Assembly (NCBI GenBank): GCA_040222015.1
Contig: JAVJWO010000064.1
Coordinates: 1 to 47,685 of the forward strand
Length of the DNA: 47,685 bases
Reading direction: 5' to 3'
Source of the DNA: Coleofasciculus chthonoplastes F2-STO-03
GTDB lineage: Bacteria > Cyanobacteriota > Cyanobacteriia > Cyanobacteriales > Coleofasciculaceae
Positions 2,916 through 16,119 of this stretch are shown here, piece after piece. A program made the position numbers and the translations under genes. Numbering within the stretch: the first letter of the stretch is position 1; the number at the start of each line of letters is the position of its first letter. The notes below the pieces were generated by a model that did not search any database, was not told where the DNA came from, and saw only the letters and a list, made by a program, of their open reading frames with translations.

Positions 2916-3119
2916 ATGTCTAGGATTACCGTTTCCGATTTACCTTTAGCTGGTTCTGACTTGTTTCAAGGTGCTGAAACTTTTCTGAGTGATCTGACAG
3001 AAAATGACCTGTCGATTACGGCTGGACTGCCATTCCCTATCATTAGATCCATCATCGTTGATACAGCTCCCATGGGCGGCGAGGATCTTTTCTTTAAGTC
3101 TATTTCTTACATGGCGTGA
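2916..3119 (+). CDS. RiPP precursor peptide 1 (cyanobacterial IxxSDL...F/ExxL-type leader ending ITAG)
   Basis: Leader resembles those at 9364 and 9977 (MxxITxSDL); AG as a double-Gly variant; lies directly upstream of the kinase and lyase genes. Confidence 0.75.
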   Translation: MSRITVSDLPLAGSDLFQGAETFLSDLTENDLSITAGLPFPIIRSIIVDTAPMGGEDLFFKSISYMA

Positions 3120-5709: not shown

Positions 5710-5828
5710 TTTTACCCTGCTTTTAAGATAGTTTTGAGGCACTTAAAAGCTACAGTTCCTGTGTGGTGAAATTCTTGGCTCATTAAAACTGATAGTTTAG
5801 CACACTAATTTCGGAAGAACCCTTATTA

Positions 5829-6050
5829 TTCAATTCCGGTTGAATAATTTCCTCTACAAAAATCAGGTGTACTCCTTTAGAAGTCACGATGGGTTTGAGA
5901 ACCTGCGGTGGCGTAGCCGCAAAAACAGCAGCAGAAATTTCCGGTTTCAACTCCTTACGCTGCACAAGCCGCCGATATCCCCTTTTCGGTGTAACTCGAT
6001 ATCCTGAATATATTGATGAGCCACCTCATAGAAACTCATTTGTCCTTCTT
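5829..6050 (-). pseudogene. Fragment of a second PpiC-type peptidylprolyl isomerase gene
   Basis: Closely matches about 10620-10845 (KPEISAAVFAATPPQVLKP.VTSKGVHLI.VEEII.PEL); 1-bp deletion near 5980; both ends missing. Confidence 0.85.
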
Positions 6051-6908: not shown

Positions 6909-7262
6909 ATGTCATTAGAAAATGTCAAAGCTTTTTACGAAAGGCTAGCAACTGATGAGGTTTTCCGTTCTCAAATTCAAGGCGTTAAAAATAAGGATGA
7001 ATGTAGCCAAATCGTCAAAATTGCTGGCTATGATTTCACCCAGCAAGAGTTTGAGGAATATACTGTCCAGTTGTTAGAGTCAAGTATTAATAATGATGAA
7101 CTCATGGATCTAAATGAAAAAGAACTGGAAGCTGTTTTTGGTGGGGCAAGTTCAATCATAGGCAAGCCCCCTATACAGCAGATATATGGAGTTGTGTGGC
7201 AACCCTACCAGCCAATGTATGGAATTATTCAGATAGATGACATAGGTAAGGAGGCGTTTTAA
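6909..7262 (+). CDS. Nif11-leader RiPP precursor 3 (spliceotide-type, two XYG sites)
   Basis: Nif11 leader (MSLENVKAFYERL...AGYDFT...LNEKELEAVFGG); core contains IYG and MYG; AAGGAG RBS. Confidence 0.92.
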   Translation: MSLENVKAFYERLATDEVFRSQIQGVKNKDECSQIVKIAGYDFTQQEFEEYTVQLLESSINNDELMDLNEKELEAVFGGASSIIGKPPIQQIYGVVWQPYQPMYGIIQIDDIGKEAF

Positions 7263-7355
7263 GAAACCACTGTTGCTTAGGTAATAGCTCAAGTTTCTGA
7301 GAGGGACAGAAATATGTCCGCTCCCCTTCTAAAGAAATTAATTGAGGGTATTTTG

Positions 7356-8618
7356 ATGACCTATCGTAGAATGAGTTATGCGGTTTGGGAAATAACTCTT
7401 AAGTGCAATCTTGCCTGTCAACACTGCGGTTCTCGTGCTGGTCATACCAGGGCGAAAGAACTTTCCACTGAAGAAGCCCTTGATATGGTTAGGCAGCTGG
7501 CGGAAGTCGGGATTAAAGAAGTAACCCTAATTGGGGGCGAGGCTTTTTTGCGTCCTGACTGGCTGGTGATTGCCCAAGCTATTACCTCTGCTGGGATGCT
7601 GTGTGGTATGACTACTGGGGGCTATGGTATTACCCTGGATACAGCACGCCAGATGAAGGAAGCTGGGATAAGGGTGGTTTCTGTATCGGTTGATGGCTTA
7701 GAAGCGACTCATGATCGCTTGCGTGGGAGACAAGGCTCCTGGCAATGGGCGTTTAAAACGATGAGCCATCTCAAGGAAGCGGGTATTCCCTTTGGCTGCA
7801 ATACTCAAATCAATCGCCTCTCTGCACCGGAATTCCCCCGTATCTATGAGCGTATCCGGGATGCTGGAGCTTTCGCTTGGCAGATTCAATTGACTGTGCC
7901 GATGGGGAATGCAGCGGATAATAGCGACATTCTGCTGCAACCTTATGAACTACTGGATGTGTACCCAATGATTGCTCGTGTTGCCCAAAGAGCGAATCGA
8001 GAGGGGGTGCGGGTTCAGCCAGGGAATAATATCGGCTACTACGGTCCCTATGAGCGACTATTGCGGGGAGGGGATGCTTGGTCGTTTTGGCAGGGATGCA
8101 GCGCTGGACTGTCTGCTTTGGGCATTGAAGCAGATGGAGCTATCAAAGGTTGTCCCTCACTGCCTACTTCAGCCTATACCGGAGGCAACATCCGCGACCA
8201 TTCACTCCGGACAATCATCGAGGAGGCGGAGGAACTGCGGTTTAATTTAGGGGCTGGTACTCCCAAAGGAACGGAGCATTTGTGGGGTTTCTGCAAGACT
8301 TGTGAATTTGCTGAACTCTGTCGTGGTGGTTGCAGTTGGACTGCTCATGTTTTCTTTGACAGGCGAGGGAATAATCCTTACTGCCACCACCGCGCACTGG
8401 CTCAAGCAAAGCAGGGTATGCGCGAGCGAGTTGCTCTTAAGGTTCGCGCACAGGGGAATCCGTTTGACAATGGAGAATTTAGTCTGATTTCGGAGCCGAT
8501 TGACACCCCTTGGCCTGAAAATGACCCGCTTCATTTTACGGCTGAGTGCATTCAGTGGTCAGAAGGCTGGCAGGATGAACCTGATATGGTATCGTCCCTG
8601 GTCAGTTCAAGTAGTTAA
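7356..8618 (+). CDS. Nif11-class peptide radical SAM/SPASM maturase, PlpX/PcpX-type splicease
   Basis: CNLACQHC radical SAM motif, GGE, SPASM cysteines (GCSAG, GCPSL, CKTC..LCRGGC, PYC); sequence closely resembles PcpX as recalled; start at MTYRR with GAGGG upstream (ORF track starts at 7314). Confidence 0.92.
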   Translation: MTYRRMSYAVWEITLKCNLACQHCGSRAGHTRAKELSTEEALDMVRQLAEVGIKEVTLIGGEAFLRPDWLVIAQAITSAGMLCGMTTGGYGITLDTARQMKEAGIRVVSVSVDGLEATHDRLRGRQGSWQWAFKTMSHLKEAGIPFGCNTQINRLSAPEFPRIYERIRDAGAFAWQIQLTVPMGNAADNSDILLQPYELLDVYPMIARVAQRANREGVRVQPGNNIGYYGPYERLLRGGDAWSFWQGCSAGLSALGIEADGAIKGCPSLPTSAYTGGNIRDHSLRTIIEEAEELRFNLGAGTPKGTEHLWGFCKTCEFAELCRGGCSWTAHVFFDRRGNNPYCHHRALAQAKQGMRERVALKVRAQGNPFDNGEFSLISEPIDTPWPENDPLHFTAECIQWSEGWQDEPDMVSSLVSSSS

Positions 8619-8682: not shown

Positions 8683-8910
8683 ATGAATGATATGTCCGTT
8701 AGTTCTATCTCATCGGTTGATACTCCAGTCATTGAGAGGACTGGCAGTAACGAGTCATCCGTTGACGATTCTCAGGCTCAGGTAGGTACTCTCCCATCTC
8801 TACTGCCTCGCTCAGCTTGGAATAGTCAGATAGCTTTCTTGAGAGTTGCTTTTAGAGCGAAGCAAGCTTTAGACCGAGTAGAGAAGGAAGCAGATATGTT
8901 GAGAAGTTAA
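8683..8910 (+). CDS. PlpY/PcpY-like splicease accessory protein
   Basis: LLPRSAWNSQIAFLRVAFRAKQALDRVEK matches the recalled PlpY/PcpY motif; small gene directly after the splicease. Confidence 0.8.
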   Translation: MNDMSVSSISSVDTPVIERTGSNESSVDDSQAQVGTLPSLLPRSAWNSQIAFLRVAFRAKQALDRVEKEADMLRS

Positions 8911-9363
8911 AGTTGATTAGCTGCAAAGACTACAGAAGTCTGTGGCTTTAGCTGGAAAGGTTTTTTCCACAAGCAAACTACCTCTACTTTTAGTTAAGTC
9001 CAGGAACTAGCGATCGCTCTTTTTTTCTCAAATTTAGTAGCGATCGCTTTTTAGCTGCATTTTTGAGCAGCACATGCAGCATTTCTGTTCGCCGTACTGC
9101 TCTGGATAGTCCAAAAGAGTCAATGATCTTGAAGAAATAATTAATTTAATTGTTGCTAGGAAAAGGCTTATATACTCTTTTAATTTGAATTAAGGGTATT
9201 GTTACTTTTCCTAAAAACAAAGAAATAAATACAATTGTTGTTTCTATAATTAAGTGATAAAAACCTTGAAATAATAGAGCAAATACCAGAACATGGTAAT
9301 GGGATGAGGCAATTCAAAGTCTAATCCCAACCGAAACAACTTTACTTAGGAGTACATTTCCAA

Positions 9364-9531
9364 ATGGCTAAGATTACAATCTCTGATCTGCATCCTGCTG
9401 AACTAAAATATGAAAAAATGTCTGACCTAGAACTGAAATCTGTCGTAGGAGGAAAAGCCCCAAAGTATAGCGTAAATCTTAAGTGGAGTCAAAAAGAGGG
9501 AGTTTCTGTTGGGTTGACTATCAAGTTTTGA
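9364..9531 (+). CDS. RiPP/bacteriocin precursor 4, 55 aa (leader ...MSDLELKSVVGG; core KAPKYSVNLKWSQKEGVSVGLTIKF)
   Basis: Below the ORF-track cutoff. AGGAG RBS, canonical double-Gly leader, same start (MAKITISDL) as 9977. Confidence 0.88.
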   Translation: MAKITISDLHPAELKYEKMSDLELKSVVGGKAPKYSVNLKWSQKEGVSVGLTIKF

Positions 9532-9647
9532 TAAAAACACAAGAGATAGTAGCACGAAAGAGAAACGTATCCTCTTAGGATTAGGAGGAAATCAGCCAGA
9601 AATTATCCTTAATTAACGCTTTGACGTTTTGGAAATCTTATTCTCTT

Positions 9648-9679
9648 TCAACCCAAGGTTTATCTTGGGTTGATTTTTT
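9648..9679 (+). terminator. Rho-independent terminator
   Basis: TCAACCCAAG-gtttat-CTTGGGTTGA followed by T6. Confidence 0.8.
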
Positions 9680-9976
9680 GTGATTCTTTTTAAGGGGGAG
9701 ATGAAGGAGGCAATTGAGGGTGAACAAAAGAGTAAAATGATTTAATTATTTTCTCAAATCATCCTAATTTTTTAGTTAATACACTCTTTTAATTAATTTG
9801 AGCTAAGGGTATCGTTACTTTCCCAAAAAACAAAGAAATAAATGTAATTATTCTTTCTATAATTAAGTGACAAAAACCTTGAAATAATAGAGCAAATACT
9901 AGAACATGGTAATGGGATGAGGCAATTTAAAGCCTGATTCCACCCAAAATAACTTTACTTAGGAAAACATTTCCAA

Positions 9977-10168
9977 ATGGCTAAGATTACAATTTCAGAC
10001 CTAGCTCATTCCCCGAATTCCGAAAGCTTTTTTACCAAGCTAAATGAGTTAACTGATCCAGACATGGCTTCGCTAATGGGTAATATCATCGGGGGCACCT
10101 GCACAACCACCACCACTTACCGCCGAAACGGTACCATCAAGAAGGAGGTTAAGGTATGTGACTGCTAG
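9977..10168 (+). CDS. RiPP precursor 5 (leader ...GNIIGG; Thr/Cys-rich core TCTTTTTYRRNGTIKKEVKVCDC)
   Basis: Double-Gly leader with SESFF motif; AGGA upstream. Confidence 0.88.
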   Translation: MAKITISDLAHSPNSESFFTKLNELTDPDMASLMGNIIGGTCTTTTTYRRNGTIKKEVKVCDC

Positions 10169-10216
10169 TAATTACCCTTAATTAACGCTTTGACGTTTTA
10201 GAACTCTTATTCTCTT

Positions 10217-10248
10217 TCAACCCAAGATAAACCTTGGGTTGATTTTTT
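10217..10248 (+). terminator. Rho-independent terminator
   Basis: TCAACCCAAG-ataaac-CTTGGGTTGA followed by T6. Confidence 0.8.
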
Positions 10249-10435
10249 ATGATTATTTTTAATTAAAGGAAACTATGAATGAGGCAATGGAGATACAAAA
10301 AAAAATAAAATACTAATAAAATCGTATTATGTTTTGGTATTAAGAAAATAAAAGCATTGAATTATGGGAAAAAATACCAGAACGAAGATGCTTTATAAGT
10401 CATAATAAAAATCCTCTGTAAGGACGTAGACCAGC

Positions 10436-10467
10436 AAAGCTATCTGATATTCATCAGATAGCTTTTT
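10436..10467. terminator. Hairpin between convergent genes, probable terminator
   Basis: 13-bp stem AAAGCTATCTGAT-attc-ATCAGATAGCTTT. Confidence 0.65.
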
Positions 10468-10508
10468 ATAGTGATTAAAAGATAGAGGCGTTGTTAGAGT
10501 TCCATAAC

Positions 10509-11264
10509 CTACGCCGCTTTGCTGTTTGATTCTATACTAGCAACAACTGTAGTTTTCTCAATTTGCTGCTTCCGCCACCCAGCAAATAAATCTGACAGAA
10601 TTTGATGGCGCAGCTTGTCATCCAACTCCGGCTCAATAATCTCCTCAACCAAAATTAGATGTACTCCCTTAGATGTCACTACTGGCTTAAGCACCTGCGG
10701 CGGTGTAGCCGCAAAAACAGCAGCAGAAATTTCCGGCTTCATATCCTTACGCTGTACCATCCCCCGATATCCCCCCTTTCGGCGTAACTCTGTATCCTGG
10801 ATATATTGATGAGCCACCTCATAGAAACTCATCTCGCCTTCTTGAATCGCATAGAAGAGTTCCATCGCCAAATCTTCATCATCCAGGACAACTTCATACA
10901 TAACAACCCCAGCATAATCCAACTGATGTTCAATAAAAAAGGGTTCAACTTTGTCCGCAAATAGATGGTGCGCCAACTTCCCAGAGATGACATTGTTGTA
11001 AATTAATTCTTCAAAATCATCTAGAGAAAGACCATTTTTTTGTAACCATGCCTTAGTTTCCTCCGCACTGTTAAGTTTGCTGATTAACCGTAGGCTGTCT
11101 GCTGCTTTCTGAAGTTCCTCTGTCTCCACTTTAATCCCTGCTTCCGCTGCAGCATCCGCAATAACCTTGCGAGTAACAATTTGCTCAACTATCTCAGGAA
11201 TCTGACACGATAGCTTAACTTGATGCAGAATATCCTCATGGGAAATCGTAATTGCTTGGGACAT
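10509..11264 (-). CDS. PpiC/parvulin-type peptidylprolyl isomerase of cyanobacterial peptide-export operons
   Basis: SurA-like helical N-terminus, FYEVAHQY..D...RRKGGYRG, GVHLILVE; follows HlyD. Confidence 0.88.
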   Translation of the reverse strand: MSQAITISHEDILHQVKLSCQIPEIVEQIVTRKVIADAAAEAGIKVETEELQKAADSLRLISKLNSAEETKAWLQKNGLSLDDFEELIYNNVISGKLAHHLFADKVEPFFIEHQLDYAGVVMYEVVLDDEDLAMELFYAIQEGEMSFYEVAHQYIQDTELRRKGGYRGMVQRKDMKPEISAAVFAATPPQVLKPVVTSKGVHLILVEEIIEPELDDKLRHQILSDLFAGWRKQQIEKTTVVASIESNSKAA

Positions 11265-11524: not shown

Positions 11525-13093
11525 CTAAAGTTCAAACCCCCCTTTTTGCAACTTCTTAAACGGGTCAAGAATAAAATCAATGATCCGACGCTGGCGGATA
11601 ATCACCTCAGCCGTTGCTGTCTGTCCAGCCGCCAAATCTATACAACCTTGTGAACTTTTAATACAAGTCTGTTTCAACTCAATTTCCAAGTCAAACGTCG
11701 CTATCTGTCCCTGCTCAGTTTCCGTCACCTTAGACGTAGGTGAAATCTGACTTACCGTTCCTTCAACTACTCCGTAATCTTGGAACGGATAAGCATCAAA
11801 CTTCATCTTGACCGGCATTCCTTTACGCAGCGTTCCACTTTCAGATGTCGCCATCTGCGCCCGCAGGATAAGGGAAGCATTCTTGGGTGCAATCTCAGCA
11901 ATTAATGTACTCGGTTGTACTACCGCCCCAGTGCGTTGAATCGGTAACTGAAAAATCGTCCCACTTACAGGAGCGCGTAACACTCGTTGTCCTAACTGAA
12001 ATTCCCAAGCTTGAATCTGACTTTTACTCTGAGAAATTTCGGCTTTAAGCGTCGTAATTTGGGTTTGCAGTTCTTTGATCTGTTCTTCACTTTTAAGCAT
12101 AGCAATATCCCCCGAATGAATCAAACTTTGATAGCTTTTTTCCTGCTCTTGTAAGCGAAGTTTGCCTTGCTCGATATCAGACTGAGCTTGATGAATAATC
12201 CTCTGATAGCTACTTTGTTGCTCTTCCTTCCGTAGCTTAGATTGCTGCACATCTGACTCCGCTTGTTCCTGTAACCGTTGCCGTTCTTGAGCCAAATCTT
12301 CCTGTTCAACTACCTTAATTTCCGGAACCACACCTTGCTCCTGAATTTGACGGTAACGTTGGACTTCTCGTTGTGCCTTAGCTAAACGAATTTCTGCTAA
12401 ATTCAAGGCAGTTTTGCTATATTCAAGGTTTTTCTCTGCCTGATTGACTTGAGCCAGTTTCTCCTCCTTTTGTAAGTTGTAAGAATTCCTGAGAGACTCC
12501 AAATTCTGCCGTGCTTGCTCCACTTGAGCCTGTTTTTCCAATGCTTGAGCCTGATTCTGTTGTTGTTGAGCGCGAACTCCCAGAAGTAATTGGTTTTTCA
12601 TCAATTCCAACTGCGCCAGCCGATTTTGTTGCCCTTCCAATCTCGTCTGAGCTTGCTGGAGTTCGCTCTTAATCTCCTCGGATTCCAGTTCTAGTAACGG
12701 CTGTTTGTTGGTAACGAATTGACCTTCCTTAACTAAAACCTTGGCTACTGTCCCCGCCACGGGTGCATCGACTTTAAACACATTTCCCTGGGGCTCAAGT
12801 CGCCCTCTAGCACTCCCAGTTTCATCTACCTTAGATAACATTGCCCAGGGTAAGATAACGCCAGCAAACACGACTAAGAAATACAATAACCCCCGCGTCC
12901 AAACTCGCGGTACAGTATCAATCAGTTCCTTAGTCAACGATGACCAATCTTCACTAATCAGTTCCGATGAATTTACCTGATTGGGTAGTGCTGTTTGAGC
13001 CGGATTATTAGTCATAATCGCTTCAGACAGTTCTTTCTCACCACTATAGTGACCATTCCGACTCCCTGGTTCCTGTGTCGATAGGTTTGGCAT
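11525..13093 (-). CDS. HlyD-family membrane fusion protein
   Basis: N-terminal TM helix, lipoyl half-motifs (DAPVAGTV..VLVKEG; RAPVSGTI), long coiled coil, DAYPFQDYG. Start may be 13093 or 13126. Confidence 0.93.
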   Translation of the reverse strand: MPNLSTQEPGSRNGHYSGEKELSEAIMTNNPAQTALPNQVNSSELISEDWSSLTKELIDTVPRVWTRGLLYFLVVFAGVILPWAMLSKVDETGSARGRLEPQGNVFKVDAPVAGTVAKVLVKEGQFVTNKQPLLELESEEIKSELQQAQTRLEGQQNRLAQLELMKNQLLLGVRAQQQQNQAQALEKQAQVEQARQNLESLRNSYNLQKEEKLAQVNQAEKNLEYSKTALNLAEIRLAKAQREVQRYRQIQEQGVVPEIKVVEQEDLAQERQRLQEQAESDVQQSKLRKEEQQSSYQRIIHQAQSDIEQGKLRLQEQEKSYQSLIHSGDIAMLKSEEQIKELQTQITTLKAEISQSKSQIQAWEFQLGQRVLRAPVSGTIFQLPIQRTGAVVQPSTLIAEIAPKNASLILRAQMATSESGTLRKGMPVKMKFDAYPFQDYGVVEGTVSQISPTSKVTETEQGQIATFDLEIELKQTCIKSSQGCIDLAAGQTATAEVIIRQRRIIDFILDPFKKLQKGGFEL

Positions 13094-13173
13094 TTTATTC
13101 TTGATTGTTAATTGTTCATTGTTCATTGGAATTTATAAGGAAAAGCCATCAGCTAACTGTGGGATAGATTTGT

Positions 13174-13365: not shown

Positions 13366-16119
13366 TCAACCCGTCATCGTAAATTGCTGCTGATTGAGGT
13401 AGAAATACTGACCCCGTTTTGCCATTAATTCATCGTGAGTTCCACTTTCTACCAAAACCCCTCTATCCAACACCAAAATTCGGTCAGCATTGCGGACAGT
13501 TGACAGGCGATGAGCAATCACTAATGTTGTCCGATTCGTCAGAATCGTATTCAGATTAGTTTGAATAATCCGTTCCGATTCAGCATCAAGATTACTCGTC
13601 GCTTCATCTAAAATCAACAATCGCGGATTTCCTAATAAAGCACGAGCAATCGCCAGACGCTGTCGTTGTCCCCCCGAAAGCATTCCTCCCCCTTCACCAA
13701 TTTGGGTTTCATAACCCATGGGCAATTCTTTAATAAACTGATGCGCTCCCGCCTGTTTCGCCGCTTCAATCACATCATCTAACGTAGCTTCGGGATGACC
13801 CACCGTAATATTCTCCCGAATTGTACCCCCAAATAGAAACGTATCCTGGTCAACCACACCAATTTGCTGACGGAGCGATCGCAACGATAAACTGGTAACA
13901 TCATAGCCATCAATGAGAATCTTGCCTTCAGTCGCAGGATAAAGTCCCAAAACCAGCTTAGAAATCGTCGTTTTCCCCGAACCACTACGCCCAACCAGCG
14001 CCACCATTTGCCCTGGCTGCACCTCAAAACTAAGATTTTCTAGCGTATTCAGATCACTTTCTGGGTGGTAACGAAACGTGACTTGCTCAAACCGAATATG
14101 TCCGCGAATCGGGGGTAAAAATTGACGAGATGACGAGTGTAAATCTTCCTCCGGTTCAGCGTCAATCACATCATTAATCCGCTCCACCGCAATCACTACT
14201 TCCTGCAAATCATTCCACAACACAATCAGCCGCTGGAAAGGACGAATCACATTCCCCAGCAACATATTAAACGCGACTAATTGCCCAATCGTGAGTTCAT
14301 TTTGAATCACCAGCCACGCCCCAAACCAGAGTAATGCCGTCGTGACGACTGCTTCAATAGTTAAGCTAAATGTTTGCAGCGTATTACCAATCACCTGCCC
14401 AGAAAAGGACGTTTTAATCGACTTGCCAAGCAAATCCTCCCAATGCCAGCGCACCGTCTGCTCAACCGCCATAGATTTCACAGTACGAATACCTGTCAGG
14501 GATTGGATTAAGTAGCCCGTTTCCTCCGTATAAGCCCCAAAAATCTCACGGGAAACTCGCTGTAAAAAGGGTGTCGCAATTAACGCCAATAACACAAAAG
14601 GTGGTACAATAACTAACGTTAGCAGCGCCATCTTCCAACTGTACCAAAGCATCAACCCGACATAGATGAACACCGTCAGTAAATCCAGCAGAATGGATAG
14701 GGCTTCACCCGTAAGAAAACGCTGAATCTTGCGATTTTCCTGGACACGGGAAATGATGTCTCCCACATAACGAGACTCAAAGAAACTCAAGGGAAGCCGG
14801 AAGGTATGGCTAATAAAACCGACAATCAGCGCTAAATCGACTCGGTTGGCGGTATGATCCAGAAGGTACTGCCGCAAGCTAGTCATCGCGACTCGAAACA
14901 AGCCAAAGATGAGTAACCCTAACCCGACAGCGGTTAACGTCAACGTGCTGCGCTGTACAACCACCCGATCTAACAGCAATTGAGTAAATAGTGGCGTAAT
15001 CAGTCCAAAAATCTGAATCAAAACCGAAGCAATCAACACCTCCAGCAATACCAGTTGGTGGGGTTTCACCAGCTCAAAGAATTGCCAGAAGGGGGTGCTA
15101 GCTGCTTGAGCCTGTTTGAGCAGGGCTGTAGGTTGGAGTAATAAGGTATAGCCTGTCCAATCCGCTTTAAATTGGGCATAAGTTAGGCTGCGCTGACCAA
15201 TAGCCGGATCAGCCACAATCACGCGATCGCGAGTCACCTCATAAACGACAATATAGTGCTTCCCTTGCCAATGGACAATCGCAGGTAACCGTTGTTCAGC
15301 CAGTTTATTCAGACTGGCTTTTACCGGACGAGTCGTAAACCCAATACTCTCAGCAGCGGCGGCTAACCCGCGCAGTGACGCCCCATTGCGGTCAACATTG
15401 GCAATATCCCGCAGGCGATTCACACTAAACCGCTTCCCCCAATAGCGCCCCACCATCACCAGACAAGCAGCACCGCAATCCGAGGCACTTTGCTGGGCAA
15501 AGAAGGGATAGCGTCGGGTGATTCGCCCCCACCACTGACCTACTTTTACGGTAGGGTTGGGGAAGTACGCTCGACTTATCTGGGACTGGGGTTTTTGTTC
15601 CTCAGGCGGTTGAGACATGACAACTGTCTCAGACTGACTGGGAAATGCTGTAACCGAGGGGTTGTCCGTTGATTGGCTAGTGTTTGCCCCCCTCACCTGT
15701 GAATCTCGGCGTACTGCGGATGAGTACAAATGCTCTTTTATCGAAGGATACTGGCGAATGAGCGATCGCAAAACATCACCGGGAATATAGCAAAGCCTCA
15801 ACTTAACGGAAGCTCTAGCCGCATAGGGGTGAAATTCCTCCTCTGGAAACAGAGTGAGTTCACCAAATGATGCCCCTGTCTCTAGTGACGTGATTAAATC
15901 ATCTGTACTATTGAGCAGTCTGACTTTACCCGCCAAGATAATATAGAGTCCCACCGTCGCCTCTGCTGTCTCCCAGAACCGTTTACCTGGGGTTGGCTCT
16001 AGAATTTGAATCTGCTGAAAACAGTTTGAGAGTTCCCTATCTGAAAGAGCCTGTCCCAAGGTTTGGGCAAGTTGTTGACCAAGCTGTTGCTGGGAAAAAG
16101 TTGATGACTTCTGAACCAT
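13366..16119 (-). CDS. Peptidase-containing ABC transporter (cNMP-binding + C39 peptidase + TMD + NBD)
   Basis: LYIILAGKVRL/FGE cNMP-like domain; QQSASDCGAACL with intact catalytic Cys, HYIVV, ADPA; GRSGSGKT, LSGGQRQR, ILDEATS. Confidence 0.95.
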   Translation of the reverse strand: MVQKSSTFSQQQLGQQLAQTLGQALSDRELSNCFQQIQILEPTPGKRFWETAEATVGLYIILAGKVRLLNSTDDLITSLETGASFGELTLFPEEEFHPYAARASVKLRLCYIPGDVLRSLIRQYPSIKEHLYSSAVRRDSQVRGANTSQSTDNPSVTAFPSQSETVVMSQPPEEQKPQSQISRAYFPNPTVKVGQWWGRITRRYPFFAQQSASDCGAACLVMVGRYWGKRFSVNRLRDIANVDRNGASLRGLAAAAESIGFTTRPVKASLNKLAEQRLPAIVHWQGKHYIVVYEVTRDRVIVADPAIGQRSLTYAQFKADWTGYTLLLQPTALLKQAQAASTPFWQFFELVKPHQLVLLEVLIASVLIQIFGLITPLFTQLLLDRVVVQRSTLTLTAVGLGLLIFGLFRVAMTSLRQYLLDHTANRVDLALIVGFISHTFRLPLSFFESRYVGDIISRVQENRKIQRFLTGEALSILLDLLTVFIYVGLMLWYSWKMALLTLVIVPPFVLLALIATPFLQRVSREIFGAYTEETGYLIQSLTGIRTVKSMAVEQTVRWHWEDLLGKSIKTSFSGQVIGNTLQTFSLTIEAVVTTALLWFGAWLVIQNELTIGQLVAFNMLLGNVIRPFQRLIVLWNDLQEVVIAVERINDVIDAEPEEDLHSSSRQFLPPIRGHIRFEQVTFRYHPESDLNTLENLSFEVQPGQMVALVGRSGSGKTTISKLVLGLYPATEGKILIDGYDVTSLSLRSLRQQIGVVDQDTFLFGGTIRENITVGHPEATLDDVIEAAKQAGAHQFIKELPMGYETQIGEGGGMLSGGQRQRLAIARALLGNPRLLILDEATSNLDAESERIIQTNLNTILTNRTTLVIAHRLSTVRNADRILVLDRGVLVESGTHDELMAKRGQYFYLNQQQFTMTG

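Follow-up and report, generated by a model that had tools for sequence, protein, structure and literature searches.

The window analysed here, i.e., the whole stretch of 47,685 nucleotides from Coleofasciculus chthonoplastes F2-STO-03, contains at 9364–9531 (forward strand) a real gene, P0001, which encodes a 55-residue double-glycine precursor whose core is predicted to form an amphipathic beta-hairpin and ends in a motif resembling the beta-signal of outer-membrane proteins. A secreted beta-hairpin peptide of the bacteriocin type, as proposed by the first-pass annotation, is supported by our analyses, and BamA is a plausible target by analogy with known ligands. The reading that we favour, with a probability of roughly one in three, is that the core is an unmodified, microcin-like beta-signal decoy acting on the BamA/Omp85 of rivals. 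The leader would be cut after Gly30 and the core exported as such by the neighbouring C39/HlyD system, then fold into the predicted hairpin, in which the first strand would keep the last one in shape. This last strand, imitating the final strand of an outer-membrane protein, would pair as a decoy with strand 1 of BamA/Omp85 in competing Gram-negatives and stall barrel assembly in their cells.

Precursor gene, cassette and neighbourhood

Translation of 9364–9531 on the forward strand reproduced the initial reading of the gene, i.e., a 30-residue leader ending in Gly-Gly (9364–9453) and a 25-residue core (9454–9528), the last eight codons of which (9505–9528) form the beta-signal-like tail. The leader has the ending of double-glycine (PCAT-exported) precursors, reaches 15.3 bits with the bacteriocin signal model TIGR01847, just below the cut-off of 15.7, and is common to many unrelated cores. 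An AGGAG ribosome-binding site lies at 9348–9352, 11 nt before the ATG, and a scan for sigma-70 promoters stayed at chance level (5 found vs. 5.2 expected). P0001 has four close alleles (P0002, P0003, P0005 and P0006). The label “unannotated” given at first could not be confirmed: NCBI, UniRef and Logan already record the protein sequence, though without a visible name for the proteins of the window.

Four RNA libraries from four studies, all labelled biocrust, yielded contigs of a close allele across 9308–9599, which indicate presence in these libraries rather than transcript ends or level, as such libraries can include DNA. This allele is of the P0002 type, with a Leu end. Compared to the window, one record (X8 record 23) has an unchanged 90-nt leader and a 75-nt core with six residue-changing substitutions and a 6-nt deletion; constant in its leader and changed in its core, this one allele gives a weak hint of a diversifying warhead. 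Moreover, many RNA-library contigs share the upstream and leader-start stretch (9300–9400), then diverge into different sequence, which is consistent with one cassette head placed on many cores. The 20 sequencing runs listed shared at most 0.15 of words.

The window itself holds a duplicated cassette. The upstream and leader-start block (9170–9389, forward strand) has a second copy at 9779–10002 (87.5% over 224 nt), while the block 9595–9693 is repeated at 10164–10262 (88.9% identity); an intrinsic-terminator-like hairpin (9648–9673, forward strand) recurs at 10217–10242, i.e., two such hairpins were found vs. 0.7 ± 0.8 in shuffles. The second copy of the unit does not encode the P0001 core: it forms a sister cassette (9977–10168, forward strand) with a shared leader start and an unrelated Thr/Cys core. 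Part of the upstream block is also kept ahead of unrelated cores in relatives of the source genome.

The P0001 cassette sits between a Nif11/TIGR04103 radical SAM operon and three genes on the opposite strand. These encode a C39 peptidase/ABC transporter (13366–16119; PF03412, PF00664, PF00005), which has the Cys-containing C39 motif and is the likely exporter and leader protease, an HlyD adaptor (11525–13126; TIGR01843, 212 bits vs. a cut-off of 208.65), and a PpiC/SurA-like rotamase (10509–11264; PF00639). Such a rotamase is typical of clusters of this kind, which are described in PMC3140520. With the one TolC-type gene found elsewhere in the genome (contig C218), the exporter set of class II microcins is present. 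No adjacent small membrane immunity gene was seen in 8900–10500, nor any small immunity gene beside the family members of loci L197–L200, where non-precursor ORFs were listed from 120 residues upwards.

Three further features of this neighbourhood deserve mention. The Nif11 precursor (6909–7262), which bears Tyr-Gly motifs, lies ahead of the TIGR04103 radical SAM enzyme (7314–8618), and we take the two to be a splicease-type pair. The 75-residue ORF at 8683–8910 (forward strand) matches neither Pfam nor NCBIfam; relatives keep its C-terminal half behind the TIGR04103 gene (L217, L218, L220 and L222; 76–80% DNA identity), and it is not tied to the P0001 core. The stretch from the HopA1-family gene to the radical SAM operon contains a short minus-strand fragment (5783–6050) that resembles the C-terminal part of the rotamase and is perhaps the scar of a cluster fusion.

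The gene is patchily distributed. A profile of the family matched none of the 51 other genomes of the source's own family and 19 of the 351 genomes of another family, 4 of them over full length. At four loci of other genomes (L201, L202, L204 and L206), a like slot before the rotamase is filled by other short cores, in three cases directly after the radical SAM gene.

A family of hairpin cores and its leader group

As first described, the core is Cys-free and ends in Phe. It was also described as cationic, which is right for P0001 (net charge +4) but not for its family, in which net charge ranges from -3 to +6 across all 21 members, most of them near neutral. The AlphaFold2 model of P0001 (20-row alignment) places strands at 34–42 and 46–54 with modest confidence (pLDDT of 60–67 in the core blocks and 54.9 overall). 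Given these strand limits, a hairpin would gather Y35, V37, L39, W41, V47, V49, L51, I53 and F55 on one face. Foldseek found no match for the model in the PDB at E-values up to 0.001, the ESM Atlas gave no usable match, and no family or model covering the core was found in Pfam, NCBIfam, the PDB or the Atlas. NF038167 (CTB family bacteriocin) and PF10439 (Blp class II) do not match P0001 at E-values up to 0.1; five of its relatives score 12–16 bits with NF038167 (cut-off: 32), in the leader region only.

A direct protein search with P0001 found only four proteins, while a profile search across 1.84 billion representatives returned 40 matches, most of them on the leader. With P0002 and P0003 set aside, 38 matches remain, of which 11 end in Phe or Trp (F/W) and 4 in the strict beta-signal motif, for shuffle means of 2.3 and 0.09, respectively. 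As a check for search bias, cores were shuffled: the leader would carry 27 of the 38 matches over the threshold in at least 90% of shuffles, and 6 of these 27 end in F/W. To avoid selecting for the tail, another profile was built from 18 precursors having cores devoid of the beta-signal motif. It recovered 144 proteins, of which 103 were analysed among the 120 matches listed, once 15 query members, P0001 and P0002 had been dropped. These 103 proteins form 48 core clusters, still among the matches listed, with F/W ends in 18, hydrophobic-x-aromatic ends in 16 and the strict motif in 3 (shuffle means: 3.9, 2.1 and 0.12). Ten of the 103 have hairpin-type cores whose turn, aromatic-[SN]-[QE]-x-x-Gly, resembles the one in P0001 (the aromatic is missing in one of the ten), and a further search added P0136–P0138. 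The family hence recovered from unrelated-core seeds alone consists of about 20 related cores, two of them with tandem hairpins. Cores are 22–28 residues long (53 in the tandem forms), and the named sources are Nostoc, Anabaena and kin.

Other searches were less productive. Across 41 genomes, a single-protein search retrieved the gene itself only, five matches at E-values of 0.3–0.7 being dismissed as chance; scans of metagenome and genome contigs gave mostly leader-only matches; tblastn against plasmids found no match, and the PDB sequence search with the family profile returned none. P0004 was rejected as a core homolog, its similarity being limited to the leader.

A core HMM was computed from 14 hairpin cores, with P0001 and its four close alleles excluded. 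It ranks P0001 4th among 283 other cores (7.5 bits), a score reached by none of 500 shuffles, and by 5 of 500 once the last three residues are removed. The tail register was examined in 16 non-redundant cores among the 21 members, selected by eye and lined up on the stop codon (P0002, which ends in Leu, was left out as redundant). F/W at -1 and hydrophobic residues at -3 and -5 occur in 16/16, counts that are inflated because the members are kin and were picked by eye; hydrophobic residues at -2, -4 and -6 occur in one, none and none of them. Lys occupies -2 in 7/16. Gly is found at -6 in six members and at -4 in another six, hence at either position in 12/16. Homologs had been expected to share a G-x-x-hydrophobic-x-F end: all 16 keep a hydrophobic-x-aromatic end and strand alternation, but only those six keep Gly at -6.

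To place this tail among double-glycine precursors at large, we compared it with a contrast sample of 143 precursors, mostly with longer leaders, at 110 loci that represent most matches to a leader-only profile (five training peptides being dropped). None has the strict motif, and F/W ends are mildly enriched (18 vs. a null of 9.6). F/W enrichment is far stronger in the short-leader clusters (18/48 vs. 18/143; Fisher p = 4e-4, for samples drawn differently), and therefore the tail feature belongs to the short-leader group. Within this group, P0009, P0038, P0042, P0080 and P0036 combine a P0001-type leader with unrelated bodies and a similar kind of tail, while hairpin-like cores on the same type of leader lack the aromatic end in L201, L202, L204 and L203; therefore, the aromatic end is needed neither for export nor for the hairpin.

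The leader group holds other recurrent features. In a second core family, on P0001-type leaders (P0045, P0046, P0048, P0054, P0059, P0083, P0139, P0140, P0144; L203:7829-7987), cores share a DxDGDGxxD motif, which presumably resembles calcium-binding loops. The tandem cores, P0037 (L200:7208-7459) and P0017, have 53 residues resembling two hairpins in a row; the family core HMM finds two units in P0037, and P0017, at 2.8 bits, is counted by pattern only. In the ESM Atlas, the best matches of P0037 residues 31–83 are unnamed viral clusters (0.85) and gloverin/attacin clusters (0.81), values below the reliable range that serve as a lead only; no attacin-BamA link was found in the literature at hand. 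Finally, a GNAT protein of about 295 residues, with two GNAT stretches in most cases, neighbours short-leader precursors at 5 of 8 loci and at further ones (L167:6266-7147, L168:1370-2266, L169:6355-7230, L172:6669-7562, L173:4546-5427, L197:6859-7785, L203:8633-9532). Many cores near it begin with Lys, and, by analogy, the enzyme could acylate Lys1 as in the nostolysamides or give self-protection.

Likeness to barrel ends and to known BamA ligands

The last eight residues of P0001 match polar-x-G-x-x-hydrophobic-x-hydrophobic/aromatic, the beta-signal consensus given in PMC10945584, which bears out the fit noticed from the sequence at the outset. Such strict ends are rare in the genome: 21 of its 29,666 small ORFs have them, 3 of 29,666 with full alternation as well, compared to 3 of the 3,968 ORFs of at least 200 residues. 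Moreover, the register of the family tails follows LGLGYRF, the terminal consensus of prototypical barrels (PMC10629564), except at -3, where I/L/F stands.

The last ten residues of the family were turned into a profile, with which the 3,968 host ORFs were ranked; Pfam defines 18 barrels among them (9 of the Omp85 family and 9 OprB). Twelve of these 18 reach the top 100, nine of them the top 40, an autotransporter outside the list ranks 10th, and three Omp85-family barrels fall below rank 2000. Compared with 248 other F/W-ended ORFs, the host barrels stand apart on this profile (p = 9e-5, paralogs not being independent). Conversely, a host-barrel profile gives P0001 a score of 3.2, within the top 0.5% of other ORFs and the top 4.4% of F/W-ended ones, yet below 17 of the 18 leave-one-out barrel scores. 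On these profiles, the family tails come nearer to the barrel ends of the host than do other F/W-ended proteins.

Two ORFs with barrel-like ends and no Pfam barrel match, G000:C117:38805-40238 and C195:59218-60906, come 1st and 11th when ranked by the tail profile; they may be porins that have gone unrecognised, and one of them carries SLH domains. Another type of core (P0009, P0038, P0042, P0064, P0020 and P0036) has a helical-looking or low-complexity body and a short hydrophobic-x-Phe tail, in which Pro frequently occupies -2; Pro-Phe is also the end of three host Omp85-family barrels.

Compared to the terminal beta-hairpin of prototypical barrels as described in PMC10629564, the family has in common the alternation, Gly at -6 or -4, a basic residue at -2 and an aromatic one at -1. 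It differs by being a stand-alone core with a type I export leader and no Sec signal, and by I/L/F rather than Tyr at -3. No homology to barrel families was detected in Pfam.

Among known toxins, the bacteroidetocins are GG-cleaved ribosomal peptides for which resistance mapping points to BamA and whose producers are self-sensitive (PMC8546649). P0001 shares with them ribosomal origin and a double-glycine precursor, its own BamA role being proposed. However, they have 42–53 residues and conserved Cys, are class IIa-like and come from Bacteroidetes, whereas the P0001 core is cyanobacterial, Cys-free and only 25 residues long. Resistance to them was mapped to an Asp in exterior loop 3, and the term “beta-signal” is absent from the text of PMC8546649 at hand. 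In lectin-like protein antibiotics (Llps), which include the L-type pyocins, a hypervariable C-terminal peptide with a hydrophobic-x-hydrophobic dyad pairs from outside with BamA strand 1 (PMC13463100; bioRxiv 10.64898/2026.09.25.754295). Their tails keep only the dyad, which is never terminal, contain Gly in 6/246 and never have a terminal aromatic residue (bioRxiv 10.64898/2026.09.25.754295). Llps dock on loop 6 through beta-lectin domains, while the P0001 family has no docking domain and ends on an aromatic residue; as a 55-residue precursor without Pfam match, P0001 does not belong to them.

The bamabactins (darobactin and dynobactin) are described as RiPPs offering BamA strand 1 a beta-strand that is rigid, which is what we propose for the P0001 core, except that their rigidity comes from radical SAM cross-links and that of P0001 would come from the hairpin. 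A DarE/DynA-type maturase was not found next to P0001: the radical SAM neighbour belongs to TIGR04103 (845 bits) and scores 59 bits with the DynA model, for a cut-off of 450. The closest likeness in organization is with the class II microcins (PMC12219008) and the cyanobacterial C39 clusters (PMC3140520), which share with the locus a double-glycine leader, C39, HlyD and TolC, a small core and several precursors. In contrast, verified microcins have an adjacent membrane immunity protein, according to PMC12219008. A RiPP-associated GNAT acyltransferase, as in selidamides, was not found in this genome with five queries. With the leader and exporter of class II microcins and no visible immunity gene, P0001 is placed here among microcin-like double-glycine precursors, in a family that has no name. 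No description of it was found in the literature at hand on beta-signal/BamA bacteriocins, cyanobacterial double-glycine precursors and class II microcins, although table S3 of PMC3140520 might include members.

What the hairpin may do

Several lines of evidence argue for the decoy: the recovery of the family from unrelated seeds, the tail register, the likeness to host barrel ends, the similar tails found on unrelated bodies, and a charge that is not conserved, which would be unlike a generic cationic lytic peptide. The apparent lack of an immunity gene may also fit, by analogy with the self-sensitive producers of bacteroidetocins (PMC8546649), and the beta-signal of OmpC, given as a peptide at 0.1 mM, inhibits BAM in vitro (PMC10945584). 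On the other side, free 11- and 17-residue tail peptides of Pyocin L1 failed to restore killing to the truncated protein (PMC13463100), which by analogy would weigh against a core having no docking domain when the pyocin requires one. Because proven mimics such as the Llps keep only the dyad, the close fit of P0001 to the substrate consensus may point to a substrate or a membrane strand instead of an inhibitor. Furthermore, an amphipathic strand with an aromatic anchor would by itself yield much of the tail signal. Self-resistance through a changed BamA strand 1 was considered and dismissed: in the barrel gene that we take to be BamA (L024, beside an LpxC-like gene), this strand is ordinary among 29 aligned sequences, resembling that of the 28 other cyanobacteria, so that no altered-strand self-protection is visible. 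If right, the decoy would work like bacteroidetocins, Llp tails and darobactin while lacking the defining features of each.

A wider idea, possible though doubtful, is that cyanobacteria secrete free-standing outer-membrane-protein units of one or two hairpins, which would enter the BAM of their neighbours as minimal substrates and there lock a hybrid barrel or form oligomeric barrels. If true, such hairpins would parallel darobactin as gene-encoded but unmodified products, besides giving a present-day example of the supposed ancestral hairpin of barrels.

It is unlikely that the hairpins are building blocks of a barrel pure and simple, four two-strand units (or fewer four-strand ones) assembling spontaneously, or via BAM as true substrates, into an oligomeric beta-barrel pore in the outer membrane of a target cell. 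The predicted face would be fully hydrophobic, with aromatics at both ends and strands of 8–9 residues, P0037 has two family units in tandem (P0017 being similar by eye), the tail is nearer to the substrate consensus than are the tails of known inhibitors, and barrels are thought to arise by hairpin repetition (PMC10629564). Nevertheless, P0017 and P0037 have no Pfam barrel match at E-values up to 1, the family profile has no sequence match in the PDB, and the single-sequence fold of P0037 is unusable (pLDDT 43.8). Type I export moreover bypasses the periplasm, from which BAM takes its substrates, and an outer-membrane pore alone is seldom lethal.

Also improbable is a generic membrane-active microcin or a peptide signal, in which the terminal Phe would serve as lipid anchor or receptor contact (e.g., for a PDZ protease sensing barrel tails) and the beta-signal match would be a by-product of an amphipathic strand. 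The mild F/W enrichment of the contrast sample speaks for it, as do the helical and Blp-type (PF10439) cores borne by the P0001-type leader, and two family members adjoin the tandem GNAT, many cores beginning with Lys (cf. the Lys1-acylated nostolysamides). Yet this would leave aside the far stronger enrichment of the short-leader clusters and the greater nearness of these tails to barrel ends compared to other F/W ends; most members are near neutral, and the genome has no such GNAT that we could find.

Alternating strands are amyloid-prone, and the hairpin might instead stack into fibres or films on the cell surface as a matrix or sheath peptide, which we hold to be rather improbable. The absence of any visible immunity gene near P0001 and the presence of a close allele in biocrust RNA libraries would suit such a role. 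There are precedents: EbfG1-3 of Synechococcus elongatus, cyanobacterial GG peptides with a tested function, form amyloid (PMC9981879; GG motif in PMC4997328), and microcins of Acinetobacter baumannii self-assemble into fibres and promote biofilm (PMC13188072). The likeness of P0001 to these small secreted microcin-type proteins (EbfG1-4, PMC9981879; MccAB1, PMC13188072) is by description only, and a fibre gives no clear reason for the aromatic chain end in 16/16, nor for a patchy gene (0/51 genomes; 4 full-length matches in 351) whose slot swaps with unrelated cores.

Last, a core modified by the enzymes of the cluster, so that the mature product would not be a plain hairpin, is very unlikely: an LxmK-like kinase (94 bits, below cut-off) and a HopA1-family protein encoded further upstream might dehydrate its three Ser and one Thr, or the TIGR04103 radical SAM enzyme might act on it, but these genes adjoin precursors of their own (2916–3119 and the Nif11 precursor, respectively), none of the three is seen among the ORFs listed across about 15 kb around the members of L197–L199, and the core lacks Cys and has Ser/Thr positions that vary in the family.

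BamA is a prime antibiotic target, for which the known ribosomal inhibitors described so far in our sources depend either on cross-links made by a radical SAM enzyme, as in darobactin, or on a docking domain, as in L-type pyocins. Apparently unmodified hairpins of 22–28 residues, available as natural variants, would be cheap to synthesize and would show whether a pre-folded hairpin alone blocks or enters BAM. If the decoy holds, some of the many double-glycine peptides that are still orphans in cyanobacteria would gain a first mechanism, and cyanobacterial Omp85 would gain natural probes; if these peptides form barrels or fibres instead, they would be natural minimal beta-barrel or matrix modules.
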